Notes: generated from the sequence alone by a model not told the origin. Numbered from the stretch's first letter, positions 5,997 to 58,487 are shown. The stretch is DNA of 64,000 nt from Acidimicrobiales bacterium (GCA_036275535.1 DASUDP010000012.1:24314-88313); one strand, 5' to 3'. Numbers and translations: made by a program.

Positions 5997-6046
5997 GGAC
6001 CCTCGGGCGGCCCAAAGGGAGCTGGTACCGACCGGATCCGGCGGGA

Positions 6047-7285
6047 TCAGCCCTGGCGGGTGAGGTGCCGCCGGAGGCGGTCGAGCAGCGAGATCACCGC
6101 CATCTGGCGGATGCGGTCCCGGTCGCCAGGGAGGCGCAGCTGCACGGCGTCGACGACGTCGCCGAGGGCCATCCCCAGCCACACCGTGCCGACGGGCTGG
6201 CCCTCCTGCTCGGTCGGGCCCGCCACACCGGTCGTGGCCAGCCCCACGTCCGCGCCGAGGCGTCGCCGGACGCCGTCGGCCATGGCCATGGCCGCCGCCT
6301 CGCTGACCACCGGGCCCTCGGGGACGCCGAGCAGGTCGCGCTTCACCTCGCCGGCGTAGGCCACCACCGCGCCCCGGAACCAGCCGCTGGCGCCGGCCAC
6401 GGCCACGAGGCGGGACGCCACGAGGCCGCCGGTGAGCGACTCGGCCACCGCCAGGGTGAGGCCCCGCTCCTCCAGCTGGCGCCCCACGACGGCCTCCATC
6501 GGCTCGTCGTCGCCCGAGAAGACGAGGTCGCCGAGGACGGCCCGCACCTCGGCCTCCTCCGCGTCGAGCAGCTCGGCCGCCTCGCTGGCCGTCGCGGCGC
6601 GGGCCGTGAGCCGCACCTTCAACCCCTCGATGCCGCTGGCCAGGAAGGCCAGGGTGGGGTTCCCGGTGGCGTCGAGGGCCTCGACGCGGGGGGCCAGCAG
6701 CTCGGCCAGGCGGGACTCGCTCTCGCCCCAGGTCCGCAGCGTGCGGCTGACGTAGACGGCCCGGACGCCGGCCCGGGCCTCGAGATCCGGCAGGACCGCC
6801 CGCTCGAGCATCTCGCGCATCTCGTAGGGCACCCCGGGGACGGCGTACACGACCCGCTCCCCCACCGGGCAGATGAGCCCCGGGGCGGTGCCGGTGCGCT
6901 GCTCGATGGGCGTGGCTCCCTCGGGCAGGTCGGCCTGGCGCAGGTTGCTGTCCGGCATCGACCGGCCCCGCCGCTCGAACACCTCGCGCATGGCGCCGAT
7001 GAGGGACTCGTCGCGCCCCAGCGGCACGCCCATCACCTCGGCGATGGCCTCGCGCGTGATGTCGTCCTGCGTGGGCCCGAGCCCGCCGCAGACGATGACG
7101 GCCTCAGCCCGCTCCAAGGACTCGCGCAGCACCGCCACGATGCGGTCGTGGTTGTCCCCCACGACGGTCTGGCGGAGGTGGTCGATGCCCCGCAGCGCCA
7201 GCTGCTCGCCGATCCAGGCGGCGTTGCTGTTCACGATCTGCCCCAGGAGGAGCTCGGTCCCGACGGCCACCACCTCGCAGCGCAC
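6047..7285 (-). CDS. cinA: CinA-family protein (MoCF-binding domain plus nicotinamide-nucleotide amidase domain)
   Basis: ORF 6047..8593 trimmed to GTG 7283-7285. [29 protein letters not shown]... and the C-terminal [13 protein letters not shown] motif are typical of CinA. Confidence 0.9.
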
Positions 7286-7290
7286 GATGC

Positions 7291-7854
7291 CTACCGGTTG
7301 CCGAGGGTGGTCGCCAGGCGGCTGCCAGCCAGGACGTACTGCACGCCGCTCACGACGGTGAGGGCCACCGCGACCCAGAGGAGGCTCTGGACGAACCAGG
7401 TGGCGTCGGTCTCGGTGAGCGGCAGGAGGGCGAAGCCGACGGCCAGCTCCTGGGCGATGGTCTTGGCCTTGGCCAGGTGGGTGGCGGGGATGGCGAGGCC
7501 CCGCTTGCCCCAGTAGGAACGCAGCGCCTGGATCCCGAGCTCGCGCACGGCGATGATGGCCACCGGGGGCCACGGGAGGGCGTCGGTGGCGACGAGGGCG
7601 GCCATCGCCCCCAGCACGAGGACCTTGTCGGCCAGCGGGTCGAGGAAGGCCCCCGAGCGGGTGGTGCCGTGCCGGCGAGCCAGGTGGCCGTCGATGCCGT
7701 CGGTCACGCAGAGGGCGATCCAGAGCGCCACGGCGGGCCAGCTGGCGCCCTCGTCGAGGACCATGGCCAGCAGCGGCAGCGTGAGCACGAGGCGAGCCAC
7801 CGTGAGCAGGTTGGCCGGAGTGGCGAGGGCCGACGGCCCGAACTGGGTGGTCAC
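7291..7854 (-). CDS. pgsA: CDP-diacylglycerol--glycerol-3-phosphate 3-phosphatidyltransferase
   Basis: ORF 7291..8982 trimmed to GTG at 7852-7854. CDP-alcohol phosphatidyltransferase motif DGIDGHLARRHGTTRSGAFLDPLADK. The GTG overlaps the rimO stop. Confidence 0.9.
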   Translation of the reverse strand: MTTQFGPSALATPANLLTVARLVLTLPLLAMVLDEGASWPAVALWIALCVTDGIDGHLARRHGTTRSGAFLDPLADKVLVLGAMAALVATDALPWPPVAIIAVRELGIQALRSYWGKRGLAIPATHLAKAKTIAQELAVGFALLPLTETDATWFVQSLLWVAVALTVVSGVQYVLAGSRLATTLGNR

Positions 7855-9128
7855 CGGGCCAGGGCCCCGACGGGCTCGGCGTAGGAGTCGGGTCCCTCCG
7901 CCCCGGTGATGCGCACGGGGACGATGGCGCCGACCTCGAGCGCCTCGGGCACCGTGATGATGCCGTCGATCTCGGGCGCCTCCCGGTGGCTGCGAGCGAC
8001 GCCCGGCGCGTCGACGAGCACGTCGACGACCTCGCCCACGAGGGCGTCGCGTCGCGCCGCGGTGATGCCGTCCTGCAGCTCCTGGAGCTCGGCCAGGCGC
8101 TCCTGCACCAGCGGGCGGGGCACCACGCCGTCGAGGCCCGCGGCGTAGGTCCCCTGCTCGGGCGAGTAGGCGAAGAACCCGCACCAGTCGACCTGGGCCT
8201 CCTCGACGAAGGCGAGCAGCTGGTCGTGGTCCTCCTCGGTCTCGCCGGGGTAGCCGACGATGAAGTTCGACCGGAACGCCGCCTCGGAGGCCACCGCCCG
8301 GATGGCGGCGATGCGCTCGAGGAACCGGGCCCCCTCGCCCCAGCGGCGCATCCGGCGCACGAGGGACGCCGAGACGTGCTGGAGCGACAGGTCGAAGTAG
8401 GGCACGCCGGTGGCCACGATGACCTCGACGAGCCGGTCGGTGAGGCCCGAGGGGTAGAGGTAGAGCAGGCGCACCCGGTCGACCCGCTGCGCCACGGCCT
8501 CCACCAGGGGGACGATGTCCTTCGTGCCCTGGCCCTGGTCGCGCCCGTAGCTGGCGAGGTCCTGGGCGACGAGGACGACCTCGCGCACGCCACCGGCGGC
8601 GAGGCCGTCGACCTCGGTGAGGACCTGCTCGATCGAGCGGGACCGTTGGGGGCCCCGGAAGCTGGGGATGGCGCAGAACCCGCAGGCCTTGTCGCAGCCC
8701 TCGGCCACCTTCACGTAGGCCCACGGCGCGGCGGTCGCCGGGCGGGGCAGGTTGAGCAGGTCGAAGGCGGGCACCGCCTCGGAACCGGGCTTGCGGCCGA
8801 GGGTCACGGGCACGCCGAAGCCCGCCACCGCGCTGGCCTCGGGCAGGGCCTCGGCCAGCTCGTCGCCGTAGCGCTCGGCCATGCAGCCGGTGACGACGAG
8901 CTCGGCGCCCGCCCCCTTGCGCTCGGCCAGGCCGAGGACGACGTCGATCGACTCCTGCCGGGCCTCGTCGATGAAGGCGCACGTGTTGACGACGACGAGG
9001 TCGGCCGACTCGGGGTTGAGCGAGGGCTGCAGGCCGTCGGCCAGCAGCGTCCCGACGAGCTTGTCCGAATCGACCTGGTTCTTCGGGCAGCCGAGGGTCT
9101 CGATGTAGAAGGTGCGGGCCCCGGCCAT
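7851..9128 (-). CDS. rimO: ribosomal protein S12 methylthiotransferase
   Basis: ORF 7851..10268 trimmed to ATG 9126-9128. MAGARTFYIETLGCPKNQVDSD, radical-SAM CDKACGFCAIP, C-terminal TRAM-like region. Confidence 0.93.
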   Translation of the reverse strand: MAGARTFYIETLGCPKNQVDSDKLVGTLLADGLQPSLNPESADLVVVNTCAFIDEARQESIDVVLGLAERKGAGAELVVTGCMAERYGDELAEALPEASAVAGFGVPVTLGRKPGSEAVPAFDLLNLPRPATAAPWAYVKVAEGCDKACGFCAIPSFRGPQRSRSIEQVLTEVDGLAAGGVREVVLVAQDLASYGRDQGQGTKDIVPLVEAVAQRVDRVRLLYLYPSGLTDRLVEVIVATGVPYFDLSLQHVSASLVRRMRRWGEGARFLERIAAIRAVASEAAFRSNFIVGYPGETEEDHDQLLAFVEEAQVDWCGFFAYSPEQGTYAAGLDGVVPRPLVQERLAELQELQDGITAARRDALVGEVVDVLVDAPGVARSHREAPEIDGIITVPEALEVGAIVPVRITGAEGPDSYAEPVGALAR

Positions 9129-9178
9129 GGCGGCCCAGGCTACCTGGGGCCCCTCACGGCACCCGCACCGGCGCTGCC

Positions 9179-10096
9179 CTACCGGGCGTGGGCGAGGCGC
9201 AGGCCGGGCCGGGACCAGTCGAAGGCCACCAGCTGGCCCGTCCCCGACAACGTCGCGTAGGCGGTGCGCAGATCGGGGCCGCCGAAGCAGATGTTGGTGA
9301 CGAGCGGGTCGGCCAGCGGGGTGTGCTCCACCGTCTCGCCGTCGGGGGAGATGGCGGTGATCCCACCGTTGACGAGCGTGCCGACGCACACCCAGCCCTC
9401 GCCGTCGACGGCCAGGCTGTCGAGGAGCTGCATCCCGGGCAGCCCCGCCAGCAGGTTGCCGGGGGCGCCGAGGGCGTTGGCCGGAGCCAGCTCCCCCGGA
9501 CCGGTCACCTCCCACCAGAACACGCGGCCGGTGTGCGTCTCGGCGGCGTAGAGGCGGTCGCCGCTCGGCGACAGCCCGATCCCGTTCGGGGCGTCGAGCG
9601 GGAACACCACCTCCGTGCAGCTCGAGCCGTCGATGGTGGCGTAGTGGATCCCGGTGCGGTCGCTGGCCCGTTCGAGGCGCACGCCGTGGTCGGTGAACCA
9701 GAAGCCGCCCTGCGCGTCGAAGACGAGGTCGTTGGGGGCCCGCAGAGGGCCGCTCGAGGACTCGGTGTACAGCGTCGTCCACTCGCCGGTGGCGAGGTCC
9801 ACCCGCTGGATCGAGCCCCCGCTCCACTCCTCCGGCACGGGCCCCGGCAGCGTGAACCCCATGATCTCGAGCCACTCGAAGCAGCCGCCGTTGTTGGTGA
9901 TGTACACGGCGCCGTCGGGCCCGAGGGCGGCGCCGTTGGGCCCCCCTCCGACCTCGGCCACCACCTCGACGGTGCCGTCGGCGGCCACCCGGCTGAGGGT
10001 GCCCCGCTTGATCTCGACCAGCAGCACGCTGCCGTCGTCGAGCGCCATGGGCCCTTCGGGGAACTGCAGGTCGGTGGCCACCGTTCGGATCTCCAT
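9179..10096 (-). CDS. SMP-30/gluconolactonase/LRE-family beta-propeller protein
   Basis: 305 aa. FPEGPMALDDGSVLLVE..., repeated GPNG/PDG/PNG blades and FTDHG-type motifs. Confidence 0.8.
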   Translation of the reverse strand: MEIRTVATDLQFPEGPMALDDGSVLLVEIKRGTLSRVAADGTVEVVAEVGGGPNGAALGPDGAVYITNNGGCFEWLEIMGFTLPGPVPEEWSGGSIQRVDLATGEWTTLYTESSSGPLRAPNDLVFDAQGGFWFTDHGVRLERASDRTGIHYATIDGSSCTEVVFPLDAPNGIGLSPSGDRLYAAETHTGRVFWWEVTGPGELAPANALGAPGNLLAGLPGMQLLDSLAVDGEGWVCVGTLVNGGITAISPDGETVEHTPLADPLVTNICFGGPDLRTAYATLSGTGQLVAFDWSRPGLRLAHAR

Positions 10097-53824: not shown

Positions 53825-54811
53825 TCAGCCCTCGGCGGGAGCCTCGGGGGTGGCCTCGGCGGCCGGCGCGTCATCAGCGGGGGCCTCAGGCCCGGGGGCC
53901 TCGACCGCATGGGCCTCGACGGCGGGCGCCTCGGCGGCCGGGGTCGGCTCGGCCTCGACGACCGGCGTGGCAGCGGCGGGCGTGACGCCGGCGGCGAGGC
54001 GGGCGTCGCGCTCCTGCTGGGCCAGCAGGGCCTGGCGGCGGGCCTCGGCCTGCTGGGCAGCCACGCGGGCCTCCTCGTCCTCGCTGCGCACGGCGGTGGG
54101 GGCGGCGGCGGCGCCGCCACGGCGGGAGGCGATGTATCGGCCCTCCTCGACGGCGTCGGCGATCACGCGGCACATGAGCGTGCCGGAGCGGATGGCGTCG
54201 TCGTTGCCAGGGATGACGTACTGGATGACGTCTGGGTCGCAGTTGGTGTCGACGACGGCGATGATCGGCAGGCCGAGCTTGTTGGCCTCGGTGACGCCGA
54301 TGTGCTCCTTCTTGGTGTCCAGGATGAACACCGCGTCGGGCAGCTTGTCCATCTGGGCGATGCCGCCGAGGTTGCGCTCCAGCTTCTCGAGCTCGCGGCT
54401 GAGGAGGAGGGCTTCCTTCTTGGGCATGGCGTCGAACTCGCCGGAGGCCCGCATGCGGCGGTACTCCTGCATCTTGGCCACGCGCTTGCCGATGGTCTCG
54501 AAGTTGGTGAGCATGCCGCCCAGCCAGCGCTGGTTGATGTACGGCATCCCGACCTTCTCGGCGTAGCTCTGGATCGGGTCCTGGGCCTGCTTCTTGGTGC
54601 CGATGAACAGGATCGTGCCGCCGTCGGCGACGAGGTCGCGCACGAAGGTGTAGGCGGTCTCGATGCGGGTCAGCGTCTGCTGGAGGTCGATGATGTAGAT
54701 GCCGTTGCGCTCACCGAAGATGAAGCGCTTCATCTTCGGGTTCCAACGGCGGGTCTGGTGTCCGAAGTGGACACCAGCCTCGAGCAGCTGCTTCATGGTG
54801 ACGACGGCCAC
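53825..54811 (-). CDS. rpsB: 30S ribosomal protein S2 with about 90-aa Ala/Glu/Pro-rich C-terminal extension
   Basis: ORF 53825..54991 trimmed to GTG 54809-54811 ([27 protein letters not shown]), preceded by AAAGGAG with a 5-nt spacer. Confidence 0.96.
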
Positions 54812-55000
54812 GAGGGCTCCTTTCCCGGGGTTCGCTGTGCCAGCCGGAGCCGGCGCCGGACCTGGCGCCTCTGACGAGGCGACCGCGGGATGGTCCGGTT
54901 GCAGGGTGTGTGTGCATGGCCAGGCGGTCGCATGGCCGAGGGGCGATGCTAGCGGCGTCGCCGGCCGATGGGCCAACGGGGCCGGGAACACGTCCGGCGC

Positions 55001-56680
55001 TCACCCGGGGGCGACGCCGCCCACCGCCAGGGCGCCCCAGGCGCTCGATCCGAGCGTGTCCTCGCCGAGGCTCACCACCTCACCCTCGAGGTGGCCGAGG
55101 AGCGCCTCGCCGAATCCCAGGCAGCCCGGCGGCAGACCGCCGACGGCGAGGGCGACCTCCCGGCCCGCCTCGGTGCTCCCGGGAAGCTGGTCGTGGGCCG
55201 TCAGCCCGTCGACGGGGACCACGACCTGCTCGGCGCCGTCGACCACCGTGCGGGGCACGGGCACCACCAGGTCCCCGCGGGCGGCGATGGATCGCACCTC
55301 GACCCCCGCGGGGAGGGGCTGGCCATCCAGGTCGTGGATGAAGTCGGAGGTCTCGGCCAGCTGGGCGGCCGACGGGGCGTCCGCATCGAGCCCGGTGAGC
55401 CAGCCACCCACGGCGAGGAGCTGTCCCCCGGCGGCGGTGCTGTTCACGGCCATGGCGGCGGTGGCCAGGTCGGCCCCATGGTGCGGGGTGCCGAGGGTGA
55501 CCACGACCCCGAGGTGGTCGAACCAGGCATCGGGGTGCCGCCGGGCCAGCTCGACCAGCGCCGCCCGGACCACGAGCCCGCCCTGGGAGTGGGCGTAGAG
55601 GTCGAGCGGCACGGTCGGCGAGCGGGCGATCGCCGCCTCGATGAGCTCGGCCAGGCGGCGGCCGCTCTCCCACAGGTCGGCCTGGCTGTCGCGCCGGTCG
55701 TAGGGCGTCGACTCGATGCCGGCGTAGGAGGCGCCGGCGGAGGGGGTGGTGCCGCCCTGGTAGCTGAACCGGGCGACGTCGGCCGGTTCGTAGCCCACCG
55801 CGGCCAGATCGAGGTCGTCGATGGCGGCCGACTCGCTGGTGGAGCCCAGGCCACCGACCCGGATGGCGAGGCGGCGATCCGCCGGGGGCGCCACCTCCAC
55901 GTCGTCCGAGGTGCAGGGCCGGGTGGCGTCGGCGTAGGCCCGGCGGGCGGCCCCGAGCGCGGCAGCGGCCCCCCGCACCGGGATCGGCACCGCGTAGTGG
56001 GCGGCGGTGCGGAGCAGCTCCCGGCCGTGGGCCTGCATCCACGCCGTGCTGGCGGCGGCTCGGTCGACGGCCCCCTCGGCGACCCACCCGAGGGCGTCGC
56101 CCATGCCGCCGAGGGCGCCACCCACCAGCTGGGTGACGGCACTGCGCTCCCCTCCCGGACCGAGGCCCGGGGGGATGTCGAAGGGGACCAGGCGCACCGC
56201 CACGGGCTGGGCGGCGAACAGCGAGGCCGGGTCGAAGTAGGCGTCGCCTCGTCGCGCGCCGAGGTGGAGGTGGCCCTGGGTGGTGCCCACCACGTCGCCT
56301 TGGTGCAGGCGCTGCCCGACGACGACCCGCACTTCGTCCAGGAAGGCGTAGGTCGTGCGCACGTCGTCGGCGTGGTGCACCGTGACGTGGTGGGCCCCGG
56401 CGACGGTCCCCGCGAACACCACCACCCCGTCGGCGGTGACCGACACCTCCGTGCCGGGGTCGGTGCCGTACTCCAGACCCCGGTTGCCTGGCGCCCATGG
56501 GGCGGCTGGCGCCCGGAACGGATCGACGACCGGCGCGGACACCGGCGGGACGTGGACTGGGGGCGGCTCGGCGGCCGCGGGCGGCGCCACCAGGGGAAGG
56601 GCGGCGAGGGCGGCCGCCAGCGTGGCGACGAGGAGCCGCGCCGGGGCGCGACGACGGACGAGCGGTGGGCGGCGGGCCAC
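55001..56680 (-). CDS. secreted fusion protein: M23 metallopeptidase domain plus lipase-like alpha/beta-hydrolase domain
   Basis: 559 aa with a GTG start after GGGGAGG. Arg-rich signal-like N-terminus. M23 motifs HHADD (HxxxD) and GHLHLG (HxH). The C-terminal half carries VGGLGST, LYAHSQGG (GxSxG) and TLGTPHHGA. Confidence 0.8.
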   Translation of the reverse strand: MARRPPLVRRRAPARLLVATLAAALAALPLVAPPAAAEPPPVHVPPVSAPVVDPFRAPAAPWAPGNRGLEYGTDPGTEVSVTADGVVVFAGTVAGAHHVTVHHADDVRTTYAFLDEVRVVVGQRLHQGDVVGTTQGHLHLGARRGDAYFDPASLFAAQPVAVRLVPFDIPPGLGPGGERSAVTQLVGGALGGMGDALGWVAEGAVDRAAASTAWMQAHGRELLRTAAHYAVPIPVRGAAAALGAARRAYADATRPCTSDDVEVAPPADRRLAIRVGGLGSTSESAAIDDLDLAAVGYEPADVARFSYQGGTTPSAGASYAGIESTPYDRRDSQADLWESGRRLAELIEAAIARSPTVPLDLYAHSQGGLVVRAALVELARRHPDAWFDHLGVVVTLGTPHHGADLATAAMAVNSTAAGGQLLAVGGWLTGLDADAPSAAQLAETSDFIHDLDGQPLPAGVEVRSIAARGDLVVPVPRTVVDGAEQVVVPVDGLTAHDQLPGSTEAGREVALAVGGLPPGCLGFGEALLGHLEGEVVSLGEDTLGSSAWGALAVGGVAPG

Positions 56681-56809
56681 GGGGCCTCCCCTGCAGGGCG
56701 CGCGGGAACGAACGGAGCAGGGGGAAGCGGGGGGACCGGCCCGCCGTCCGGCGGTCGGTCGATCTCGGGGGGTCGGGGCGGGCGTGCCGTCAGCAGCCCA
56801 CCCCGGGTG

Positions 56810-57589
56810 TCAGGCCGGTTCGCGCTCGCTGGCCGCCAGCCGCGACCGCAGCTGGATGACCGACTTGGTGTGGATCTGGCAGACCCGGCTCTCGGTGACC
56901 CCGAGGATGGAGCCGATCTCCGCGAGGGTGAGGCCCTCGTAGTAGTAGAGGGTGAGGACGGTCTTCTCGCGCTCGGGCAGCCGGTTGATGGCGTCGGCCA
57001 GGATGTGGCGCATCTCCTCGACCTCGTAGGCCGCCACGGGCCCCAGGCCCTGGTCGGCCAGTGTGTCGCCGAGGGTGGTGGCGTCGCTGCGGTCTCCGGT
57101 GGAGAGCATCTCGTCGAGCGCCACCAGGCCGGTGAAGGAGATCTGCCCGAGGGTGGTCTGGAGCTGGTCGTCGGTGAGGTCGAGCTCGTGGGCCAGCTCG
57201 CGATCGGTCGGGGTGCGGTGGAGCTGGGCCTCGAGCTTGGAGTACGCCTTCTCGAGGGCCCGGGCCTTGGCCCGCACCGACCGTGGCACCCAGTCGATCG
57301 AGCGGAGCTCGTCGAGGATGTTCCCCTTGATCCGGGCGATGGCGTAGGTCTCGAACTTGAAGCCCCGCTCGAGGTCGAACTTCTCGATGGCGTCGATGAG
57401 GCCAAAGATCCCGTAGGAGACGAGGTCGGCCTGGTCGACGTTCTGGGGCAGCCCGGTGGCCACCCGGCCGGCCACGTACTTGACGAGCGGGGCGTAGTGG
57501 ACGATCAGCTGATCCCGCAGCCCACCGTCACCGGTGGACTTGTACTCGGCCCACAGCCGCTCGATGTCCGGTTCGGGATCGTTCGTCAA
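56810..57589 (-). CDS. FliA/WhiG-family (sigma-28-type) RNA polymerase sigma factor
   Basis: Real part of ORF 56810..58555. TTG start at 57587-57589, with GAGAGG 7 nt upstream. Region 2 ([18 protein letters not shown]) and region 4 HTH ([24 protein letters not shown]). Confidence 0.88.
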
Positions 57590-57605
57590 GGTGAAGCCTC
57601 TCGCC

Positions 57606-58487
57606 CTAGGCCCGTGGGTGGGTGGCGTCGTAGACGGACCGGAGCCGCTCACGGCTGACGTGAGTGTACCGCTGGGTGGTCGCCAGGTCGGCGTGGCCGA
57701 GCAGCTCCTGGACGGCGCGCAGGTCGGCGCCCCCGTCGAGGAGGTGGGTGGCGAAGGTGTGGCGCAGCGCGTGGGGGTGCGTCGGAGCGGCGGCCCGACG
57801 GTCGAGGAGGCGCCGGACGTCCCGGGGCGTGAGCCGCTTACCCCGCTGGTTGACGAACACCGCCGAGGCTGCCTCCTCCTGGCGCTGCATCGCCGGGCGG
57901 CCCTCGGCCAGCCAGCGCTCGAGCGCGGCCACGGCCGGCTCCCCGAGGGGCACGGCCCGCTGCTTGCCTCCCTTGCCCCACACGGCGGCCCGGCCGCGGG
58001 GCAGGTCGAGGTCGCCGACGTCGAGGGAGCACAGCTCCCCCACCCGCAGCCCGGCGCCGTAGAGCACCTCGAGCACGGCATCGTCCCGGGCCCGCACCGC
58101 CGGCTGGTCCTCCTCGCAACGGGCGGGCGGCTCGTCGAGCAGGGCGTTGAGCTCCTCCTGGCGCAGCACCCTGGGGAGGCGGCCATCCCCACGCGGTGCC
58201 GTGAGGCCGAGGGACGGATCGGCGGCGGTGAGCTCCTGGCGGGTCGCCCACCGGAAGTAGCGGCGCAGCGCGGAGGCCTTGCGGGCCATCGACCGCCGGG
58301 CGTAGCCCTCGCTGGCAAGGTGGGCCATGTACCGGCGCAGGACGAGCCGATCGACGCCGGTCGGGCCCTTGACGCCTTGCGCCTCGGCCCACGCGGAGAA
58401 GCCGGCGAGGTCGCGGCGGTAGGCCTCGATCGTGCGCGGGGCGACGGCCGTGAGCGACGCCACGAAGTCGTCCCCGCGCCAAGCCAT
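57606..58487 (-). CDS. xerC: tyrosine recombinase XerC/XerD family (chromosome dimer resolution type)
   Basis: ORF 57606..58775 trimmed to ATG 58485-58487. [11 protein letters not shown] and [13 protein letters not shown] catalytic motifs. Position next to dprA as in mycobacteria. Confidence 0.9.

Follow-up and report, generated by a model that had tools for sequence, protein, structure and literature searches.

The window analysed here, a stretch of 64,000 nucleotides from an Acidimicrobiales bacterium (GCA_036275535.1 DASUDP010000012.1:24314-88313), carries between whiG and rpsB a gene of 559 codons (55001..56680) whose product joins, in one permanent fusion, a module resembling the LytM factors to a lipase-like esterase; both parts are of known kinds. 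The gene and all its features described below lie on the minus strand. With moderate confidence, we read the product as an active esterase tethered to a LytM-type module that serves for binding or regulation, the whole being exported and vertically inherited across the Acidimicrobiia. What the data show directly is the domain architecture, which catalytic residues are lost and which are kept, conservation, synteny and the relations of fold; the targeting or regulatory role, together with export, a disulfide, the inactivity of the M23 module and the activity of the esterase, is what we infer. A first-pass annotation of this DNA had already recognised an M23-fold domain and a lipase-like serine hydrolase in one polypeptide, and this composition is borne out.

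Relatives were collected by a scan of one genome per species, in which 407 genomes encoded one; locus comparisons use the best 80 of these 407, and residue counts refer to 80 sequences, namely those of 79 related species and the window protein. The N-terminal module (residues 45-160; 56201..56548) is a degenerate domain of the LytM/M23 fold, with a mean identity of 59% between the window protein and its relatives. Pfam Peptidase_M23 (PF01551) covers residues 66-151 with 47.8 bits against a cutoff of 28.7, and the predicted model of residues 45-160 has a predicted local distance difference test score (pLDDT) of about 90. In Foldseek searches with this model, the top match was the LytM domain of EnvC (4bh5; template modelling score, TM, 0.78), StM23 (9gy1) and LytM (2b13) were matched with TM scores of 0.81 and 0.73, and DipM (7qrl) was recovered with E = 4e-8. 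The modelled fold is matched equally well by active enzymes and by EnvC and DipM, whose LytM domains are non-catalytic.

Residue-level alignments and column counts concern the catalytic site itself. N66-R-G-L-E70 (56471..56485) occupies the position of the HxxxD zinc motif, aligning with HTGID of NMB0315 (3slu), HVGVD of zoocin A and HNGID of StM23. Position 66, which in active M23 enzymes is the first zinc-ligand His, is Asn in 78 of the 80 sequences and His in two, while position 70, the zinc-ligand Asp of active enzymes, is Glu in 51, Asp in 19 and another residue in ten. The general-base His, part of YAH or YGH in active M23 domains, is replaced by F113 in the sequence YAF (56342..56344); this column, equivalent to LytM His260, holds Phe (71/80), Tyr (5/80) or Pro (4/80) and never His. 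At the HxH position (H137-L-H139; 56264..56272), the first His is kept in 10 sequences and the second in 76, the window protein itself having both. DipM, a LytM regulator found inactive by experiment, shows a similar pattern in the alignment: its first ligand position is Asn, and of the HxH pair it retains the second His alone.

Both M23 zinc motifs had at first been located within residues 60-150. GHLHLG indeed lies at the HxH position, even if its first His is rarely conserved, but HHADD had been mistaken for HxxxD, whose true position is N66-E70. HHADD (residues 102-106; 56363..56377) corresponds to the general H-x-D-G strand motif of the family: RHANG, QHADG and KHADG are its aligned counterparts in other M23 domains, and 77 of the 80 sequences have Gly in place of D106. 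A second literal match to HxxxD occurs at residue 400, within a lipase motif. HHADD was therefore rejected as a zinc motif and regarded as a chance match to the pattern, its alignment position being wrong and D106 not being conserved.

Because the M23 module has lost the His residues that serve as zinc ligand and general base and, in most members, also the first HxH His, we infer that it is not a peptidoglycan endopeptidase. This bears directly on the first-pass proposal of a two-headed enzyme, in which an active M23 zinc endopeptidase would cut peptidoglycan cross-links while the C-terminal half de-esterified a lipid or O-acyl group. Such an enzyme could claim a Peptidase_M23 match above the Pfam cutoff, the literal HLH of residues 137-139, the Glu at the Asp position, the conserved H139 and the name given to the protein in public records; it is nevertheless highly improbable, given the substitutions at the first ligand, general-base and first HxH positions, the misplacement of HHADD and a residue pattern like that of inactive DipM. 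The name in question, peptidoglycan DD-metalloendopeptidase family protein, is assigned to the protein and its homologs by the NCBI Prokaryotic Genome Annotation Pipeline; it is suspect because the catalytic-residue analysis speaks against an endopeptidase, and it is probably an over-annotation of the whole family, so that a probably wrong functional label would be carried by more than 400 species.

What is retained in the module points to another function. Mean identity to the window protein over the 79 related species is higher in the M23 module than in the hydrolase (49.5%) or the linker (27%), and being the best-conserved segment despite its lost catalytic residues, the module appears to be under selection for a non-catalytic function. 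R143 is present in 80/80 sequences and H98 in 75/80, and T100 is invariant in the family alignment (A1). When the alignment with DipM is mapped onto the numbering of the DipM study (PMC10336132), these residues correspond to DipM R589, L537 and L539, respectively, whose mutation abolishes partner binding (PMC10336132). Their conservation fits a functional groove, as judged from the alignment, even if R143 alone does not discriminate, since the same Arg is conserved in active M23 enzymes. Two observations weigh against a module devoid of metal chemistry: a non-canonical metal site might conceivably be built from E70 (Glu or Asp in 70/80), H139 and H98, the last of these being specific to the family, and the window protein still has H137.

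One divergent member of the family, encoded at locus L065, carries G-H-R-G, with His back at the first ligand position, together with Trp for H98, Pro for F113 and Leu for H139. Degeneration has taken different routes within the family, as this member regained His66 yet lost H98, F113 and H139.

Set beside active M23 enzymes (Staphylococcus aureus LytM, lysostaphin, zoocin A, StM23 and Neisseria NMB0315/NGO1686), the module shares the Pfam family and the fold and keeps the strand motif H-x-D-G, the second HxH His and the Arg that follows; it differs in having N-x-x-x-E for HxxxD, Phe for the general-base His and an unconserved first HxH His. With the inactive LytM regulators EnvC, NlpD and ActS of Escherichia coli, DipM of Caulobacter and SpoIIQ of Bacillus subtilis it shares both the LytM fold and a degenerate metal site. 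The likeness is particularly evident for DipM, extending to Asn at the first ligand position, the second HxH His and the groove Arg (R143, equivalent to R589), whereas two groove positions are His and Thr in the present family and Leu and Leu in DipM. Known LytM factors carry coiled coils, LysM domains or lipoprotein anchors and act on separate enzymes, whereas here the module is covalently fused to a lipase-like hydrolase; moreover, the host is a monoderm actinobacterium, and the protein is likened to these factors by fold and residues.

The second module (residues 255-520; 55121..55918) is a lipase-like alpha/beta-hydrolase domain, as indicated by Pfam, by profile matches to PDB sequences, by Foldseek and by a model with pLDDT of about 90 outside the lid. 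DUF676 (PF05057) is matched with 24.1 bits by the full-length protein and 25.9 by the domain alone, against a cutoff of 20.3, so that both this family and Peptidase_M23 exceed their Pfam thresholds. DUF7379 (PF24096) stays below its cutoff of 33 in the window protein (28.8-29.4 bits); it was matched (E < 0.01) by 21 of 21 tested members, as was DUF676, and is already annotated on most homologs. PGAP1, Tle3, LCAT and Lipase_2 gave weaker Pfam matches, PGAP1 and Tle3 falling below the cutoff for the window protein. Membership of the DUF676, DUF7379 or PGAP1-like families adds no functional information, as these families have no defined substrate. A profile of the domain searched against PDB sequences retrieved the lipases of Burkholderia glumae and B. 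cepacia (E = 2e-9 to 4e-8), and also matched B. subtilis LipA, Pseudomonas aeruginosa LipA, MAS1 and MAJ1.

Within this domain, every alpha/beta-hydrolase motif listed at first pass (VGGLGST, AHSQGG, TLGTPHHGA, ARGDLVVP and TAHD) is present, and the suggested nucleophile Ser365, with its candidate Asp and His, resolved into invariant residues (S365, D470 and H496). The loop following strand beta-1, G276-G-L-G-S-T-S282 (55835..55855), is a candidate oxyanion loop on the basis of conservation, G277, G279, S280 and S282 being invariant or nearly so; VGGLGST may be the counterpart of the H-G-L loop of family I lipases, although none of the lipase alignments covered this segment. The nucleophile elbow A363-H-S365-Q-G-G368 (55577..55594; Ser365 at 55586-55588) has H364, S365 and G367 each in 80/80 sequences, and AHSQGG aligns with GHSQGG of the B. 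glumae and B. cepacia lipases and with AHSMGG, containing Ser77, of B. subtilis LipA. Further along, T395-L-G-T-P-H-H-G-A-D404 (55469..55498) aligns with TIGTPHRGSE of family I.2 lipases, with T395, P399, H400, G402 and D404 conserved.

A helical lid or cap insertion follows (residues 403-452; 55325..55474), modelled as three helices with low pLDDT and showing, over residues 405-452, a mean identity of 39%; lipase lids are usually low in both model confidence and conservation. Asp470 (55271..55273) is the predicted catalytic acid, conserved in 80/80 sequences, and His496 (55193..55195), conserved in 79/79, the predicted catalytic base; the latter lies 26 residues past Asp470, a spacing also found in family I lipases. 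An hhalign comparison with B. subtilis LipA gave 94% probability and placed S365 on Ser77 and D470 on Asp133; the aligned stretch ends at LipA residue 155, missing His156 by one residue, and in the query it ends three residues ahead of H496.

The hydrolase was also modelled as an isolated domain, with a predicted TM score (pTM) of 0.81. In Foldseek, MAJ1 of Janibacter (7v3k) and MAS1 of Streptomyces sp. (5h6g) were the closest structures (E = 3e-8 to 1e-7, TM 0.55-0.63), followed by a monoacylglycerol lipase and thioesterases. MAS1 and MAJ1, which were also matched by the sequence profile, differ from the present protein in being single-domain enzymes; identity to them is 16-23%, and the root-mean-square deviation of 8-9 Å is due to the divergent caps. 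As for the family I lipases (B. glumae and B. cepacia LipA, I.2; P. aeruginosa LipA, I.1; B. subtilis LipA, I.4), the shared features are x-H-S-Q-G-G, T-x-G-T-P-H-x-G and the same order and spacing of Ser, Asp and His. The differences are that only a core of about 90-150 residues aligns, that the lid is of another kind, that the domain is fused to a LytM module, and that it gives no evidence of a Lif-type foldase or a Ca2+ site.

Taken together, these features indicate that the module is apparently an active, lipase-like serine esterase with a predicted Ser365-Asp470-His496 triad. Some considerations temper this reading. The similarity to lipases is remote (identity of at most 23%, TM of about 0.6) and says little on the substrate, and thioesterases and monoacylglycerol lipases score almost as well as lipases. 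The triad, moreover, was placed by conservation and alignment, and the cysteine pair described below by predicted beta-bridges.

The N-terminus was expected from the outset to be a Sec- or Tat-like signal, and the features of a signal peptide proved to be conserved in kind, not in sequence, in 28 aligned full-length proteins (that of the window and 27 homologs). Residues 1-37 (56570..56680) comprise, by hydropathy and charge, an n-region with six Arg, a hydrophobic core and A-A-A before E38 as the predicted cleavage site; this A-x-A-like site directly precedes the conserved mature start PPVDAPVxDPF. The N-terminus of the window protein has no lipobox Cys. On these features of hydropathy and charge, the protein is probably exported by the Sec route.

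Two Cys residues, the sole ones in the protein, bracket the hydrolase domain: Cys256 (55913..55915), conserved in 80/80 sequences, and Cys520 (55121..55123), conserved in 79/79. The full-length and the domain-only models each show isolated beta-bridges at residues 257 and 519; these bring the two Cys residues side by side and thereby suggest a disulfide, a bond typical of extracytoplasmic proteins. It would join the N- and C-terminal ends of the domain, at positions other than those of the disulfide in family I.1 and I.2 lipases. Between the modules, the linker (residues 161-254; 55919..56200) is modelled as a disordered stretch, with residues 161-208 at pLDDT below 50 (about 30), followed by a helical hairpin (199-230 and 233-253); closer relatives share in it the short motif V-x-L-V-P-F ... 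G-E-R-S-A. The protein ends in a putative amphipathic helix (residues 521-559; 55004..55120), modelled as helical over 523-556 with pLDDT falling from 86 to 52 and showing a mean identity of 25%.

The reality of the fused gene was assessed from the sequence, from codon usage and from homology. The open reading frame (ORF) begins with GTG at 56680 and runs unbroken to a stop codon at 55001-55003, with a Shine-Dalgarno-like GGGGAGG (56685..56691) four nucleotides upstream of the start; the unbroken frame, the GTG and the GGGGAGG had been reported at first pass. Its length alone is no proof, since the DNA has 73% GC and many long overlapping ORFs. Nevertheless, GC content at third codon positions (GC3) is 93.4%, compared with 94-96% in the neighbouring tsf, pyrH, rpsB and whiG and 77% in an antisense ORF, and NCBI holds a 559-residue protein, from an Acidimicrobiales metagenome-assembled genome (MAG), that is 100% identical; GC3 and homology thus rule out a chance ORF in high-GC DNA. 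The antisense ORF, of 896 codons (54968-57658, plus strand), lies opposite the gene and whiG and has codon-position GC of 92.5/54.2/77.0; this pattern mirrors that of the real gene on the opposite strand, and the ORF was dismissed as a high-GC artefact. A scan of 54600-57000 gave no consensus sigma-70-type promoter or intrinsic terminator and is uninformative at this GC content.

The possibility of two genes joined by a frameshift or missed stop was likewise examined in related genomes and ruled out: a single in-frame tblastn match spans both domains in 79 of 80 species, and for this reason the fusion is not an assembly or frameshift artefact. The sole case of a copy split over two frames among the 80 loci, L033 (about 6001-7672) of the Microthrixaceae MAG MFD04212.bin.2.37, is either an assembly frameshift or a pseudogene.

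The architecture is class-wide in the Acidimicrobiia and not rare. The best 80 of the 407 genomes belong to this class or are labelled only as Actinomycetota, actinomycetes or uncultured bacterium, with one exception labelled Acidobacteria. Carriers include Microthrixaceae (with Candidatus Microthrix parvicella, L011), Iamiaceae, Acidimicrobiaceae and the cultured Actinospongicola halichondriae (strain Hal317, with the orthologue at about 1,068,437-1,069,915 of NZ_CP171622.1), and come from soil, marine, Antarctic and sponge habitats. The best 120 protein matches are all of about 520-600 residues with the same two Pfam domains. A full-length profile searched against 1.84 billion cluster representatives retrieved 1,082 clusters below 1e-30, the best 150 of which are all full-length family members, so that the fusion family comprises at least 150 clusters at 50% identity. 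Literature searches returned no paper on the combination of M23/LytM and lipase domains, in Acidimicrobiia or generally, nor on DUF7379, and for the M23 peptidase of the whiG/rpsB locus nothing relevant was present among the matches listed. The first-pass remark that the architecture was not known as a described one therefore holds for publications, as far as these searches go, but not for sequence databases, where it is common.

The placement of the gene in the whiG/xerC-rpsB slot, noted at the first reading, was confirmed and extended to relatives, in which the slot is conserved. The order dprA-xerC-(whiG)-target-rpsB-tsf-pyrH, on one strand, recurs, with few exceptions, wherever the locus extends far enough for it to be seen. 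Upstream of the target in the window lies a gene for a WhiG sigma factor of 259 residues (56810..57589; 369 bits with the NCBIfam WhiG equivalog model, whose cutoff is 343, and Pfam regions r2, r3 and r4), and rpsB lies downstream (53825..54811; Pfam Ribosomal_S2, 4e-98), starting with GTG at 54811 behind an AAAGGAG Shine-Dalgarno sequence; a XerC-type recombinase and DprA are the other neighbours. The more the flanking housekeeping genes have diverged, the more the fusion protein tends to have done so too (Spearman 0.60-0.79), which points to vertical inheritance.

This genomic setting bears on two further explanations of the hydrolase. The protein might serve nutrition, as a secreted lipase that scavenges extracellular lipids while a non-catalytic M23 module keeps it on the wall; lipases secreted by actinobacteria (MAS1 and MAJ1) are the nearest solved structures, family I true lipases are matched, and the family includes Ca. 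Microthrix parvicella, a lipid specialist. We give this explanation little credence, as the gene is syntenic at a housekeeping locus in more than 400 species from many habitats and its divergence tracks that of ribosomal and translation genes; on both counts a core envelope function fits better than a niche trait. An antibacterial effector, consisting of a wall-binding module and a Tle-like phospholipase, would account for the weak Pfam Tle3 matches seen in 17 of 21 members. It is extremely improbable, since those of the window protein all fall below the Pfam cutoff, the signal is of the Sec type instead of an effector-delivery domain, and the housekeeping synteny is fixed, with vertical inheritance and no conserved adjacent immunity gene. 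Membership of a defence system was also discarded, the PADLOC output being a single marginal match (E = 0.002).

A third explanation concerns the neighbourhood of the gene. The protein might be mainly a LytM-factor regulator of a separate peptidoglycan hydrolase (such as an amidase, lytic transglycosylase or SpoIID-like enzyme) in division, while its own hydrolase would have the wall instead of lipids as its target, for instance as a serine peptidase or by removing O-acetyl groups from peptidoglycan. Activation of other proteins by degenerate LytM domains is documented (PMC10336132, PMC8594824), residues equivalent to the DipM groove are conserved, the locus adjoins xerC and whiG, a SpoIID-domain gene is adjacent in one related locus, and there are weak matches to Hydrolase_4 (S33 aminopeptidase). 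Against these points, no partner gene is consistently adjacent across the loci, and all significant C-terminal matches with a known substrate class are of the lipase, thioesterase or phospholipase type. The fold, too, counts against a wall esterase, as the known peptidoglycan O-acetyl esterases are, to our knowledge, of the SGNH fold and not of the alpha/beta-hydrolase fold found here. On balance we regard this explanation as unlikely, though still plausible, and retain the tethered, LytM-guided esterase as the preferred reading.

Several loci depart from the common gene order. A whiG homolog went undetected (tblastn, 1e-8) between xerC and the target in about a quarter of loci (L013, L017, L019, L023-L025, L029, L030, L035, L039, L040, L044, L053, L065, L072, L077 and L080), with xerC directly abutting the target in L019 and L039; the sigma factor is thus not a fixed part of the slot. 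A gene for a BamB-like PQQ_2 beta-propeller lies between target and rpsB in L026 (7682-8863), L046 (7611-8804), L048 (4177-5289) and L050 (7626-8735), three of these four inserted genes having a lipoprotein-like N-terminus, and target-rpsB gaps of similar size occur in L035, L037, L038 and L055. In the single locus L077, from an Acidimicrobiaceae genome, a 605-residue SpoIID-domain protein is encoded directly downstream of the target (7706-9523); by analogy with SpoIIQ and SpoIID in sporulation, it could be functionally linked to the degenerate LytM module. Neither the BamB-like nor the SpoIID-domain genes were accepted as partners, as they are not conserved among loci. The window rpsB product itself has a C-terminal extension of about 100 residues rich in Ala, Pro and Glu, Pfam Ribosomal_S2 covering residues 9-224 of 328.

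At first pass, other actinobacteria were supposed usually to carry a stand-alone M23 gene of about 250 residues at this position. A stand-alone counterpart of the first module may exist in Mycobacterium tuberculosis in the form of Rv2891, which adjoins rpsB (Rv2890c). Rv2891 resembles the first module in being an actinobacterial M23-domain protein and differs in reportedly having no hydrolase domain. It is one of three M23-domain proteins of that species, of which only Rv0950c is reported to keep the zinc site (PMC8594824).

A working scheme for the fusion protein can be proposed by analogy with EnvC, NlpD, DipM and ActS. The LytM module would most probably bind through its putative conserved groove, with peptidoglycan stem peptide, some part of its own polypeptide and a helix contributed by a partner autolysin as candidate ligands, and it could anchor the protein to the wall or contact a partner, as EnvC, NlpD and DipM do. 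The disulfide-stapled, lidded hydrolase would most probably cleave or transfer an acyl ester, either of a membrane lipid or of an O-acyl group on a wall polymer, and the flexible linker of about 95 residues would give the LytM module the freedom to position the esterase, or to gate it, where wall and membrane meet.

In a more specific version, the dead LytM groove would dock a helix of its own protein (from the lid, the linker hairpin or the C-terminus), and, upon contact with peptidoglycan or with a divisome partner, would let this helix go and switch the esterase on. We consider it rather unlikely. The full-length AlphaFold model yielded no confident signal of inter-domain docking and no confident inter-domain arrangement (pTM 0.58, linker pLDDT below 50), so that intramolecular regulation has no backing from structure; this also counts against the preferred reading. 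Were own-helix docking true, activation of the EnvC-amidase type would take place within one polypeptide, with an acyl ester at the interface of wall and membrane as the substrate. Acidimicrobiia would then have a core activity in envelope remodelling that had gone unrecognised, and the ancestral role of the rpsB-adjacent M23 gene of actinobacteria may have been the same.

Known LytM factors are free-standing adaptor proteins by which autolysins distinct from themselves are switched on, and a fusion conserved at a core locus throughout a bacterial class suggests that the same groove has been reused for an envelope enzyme of a different type. The envelope biology of Acidimicrobiia is almost unstudied, in spite of their abundance in soil, in seawater and, with Ca. 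Microthrix, in wastewater; a conserved, predicted exported esterase with a predicted wall-binding or regulatory module would offer a testable entry point into it.

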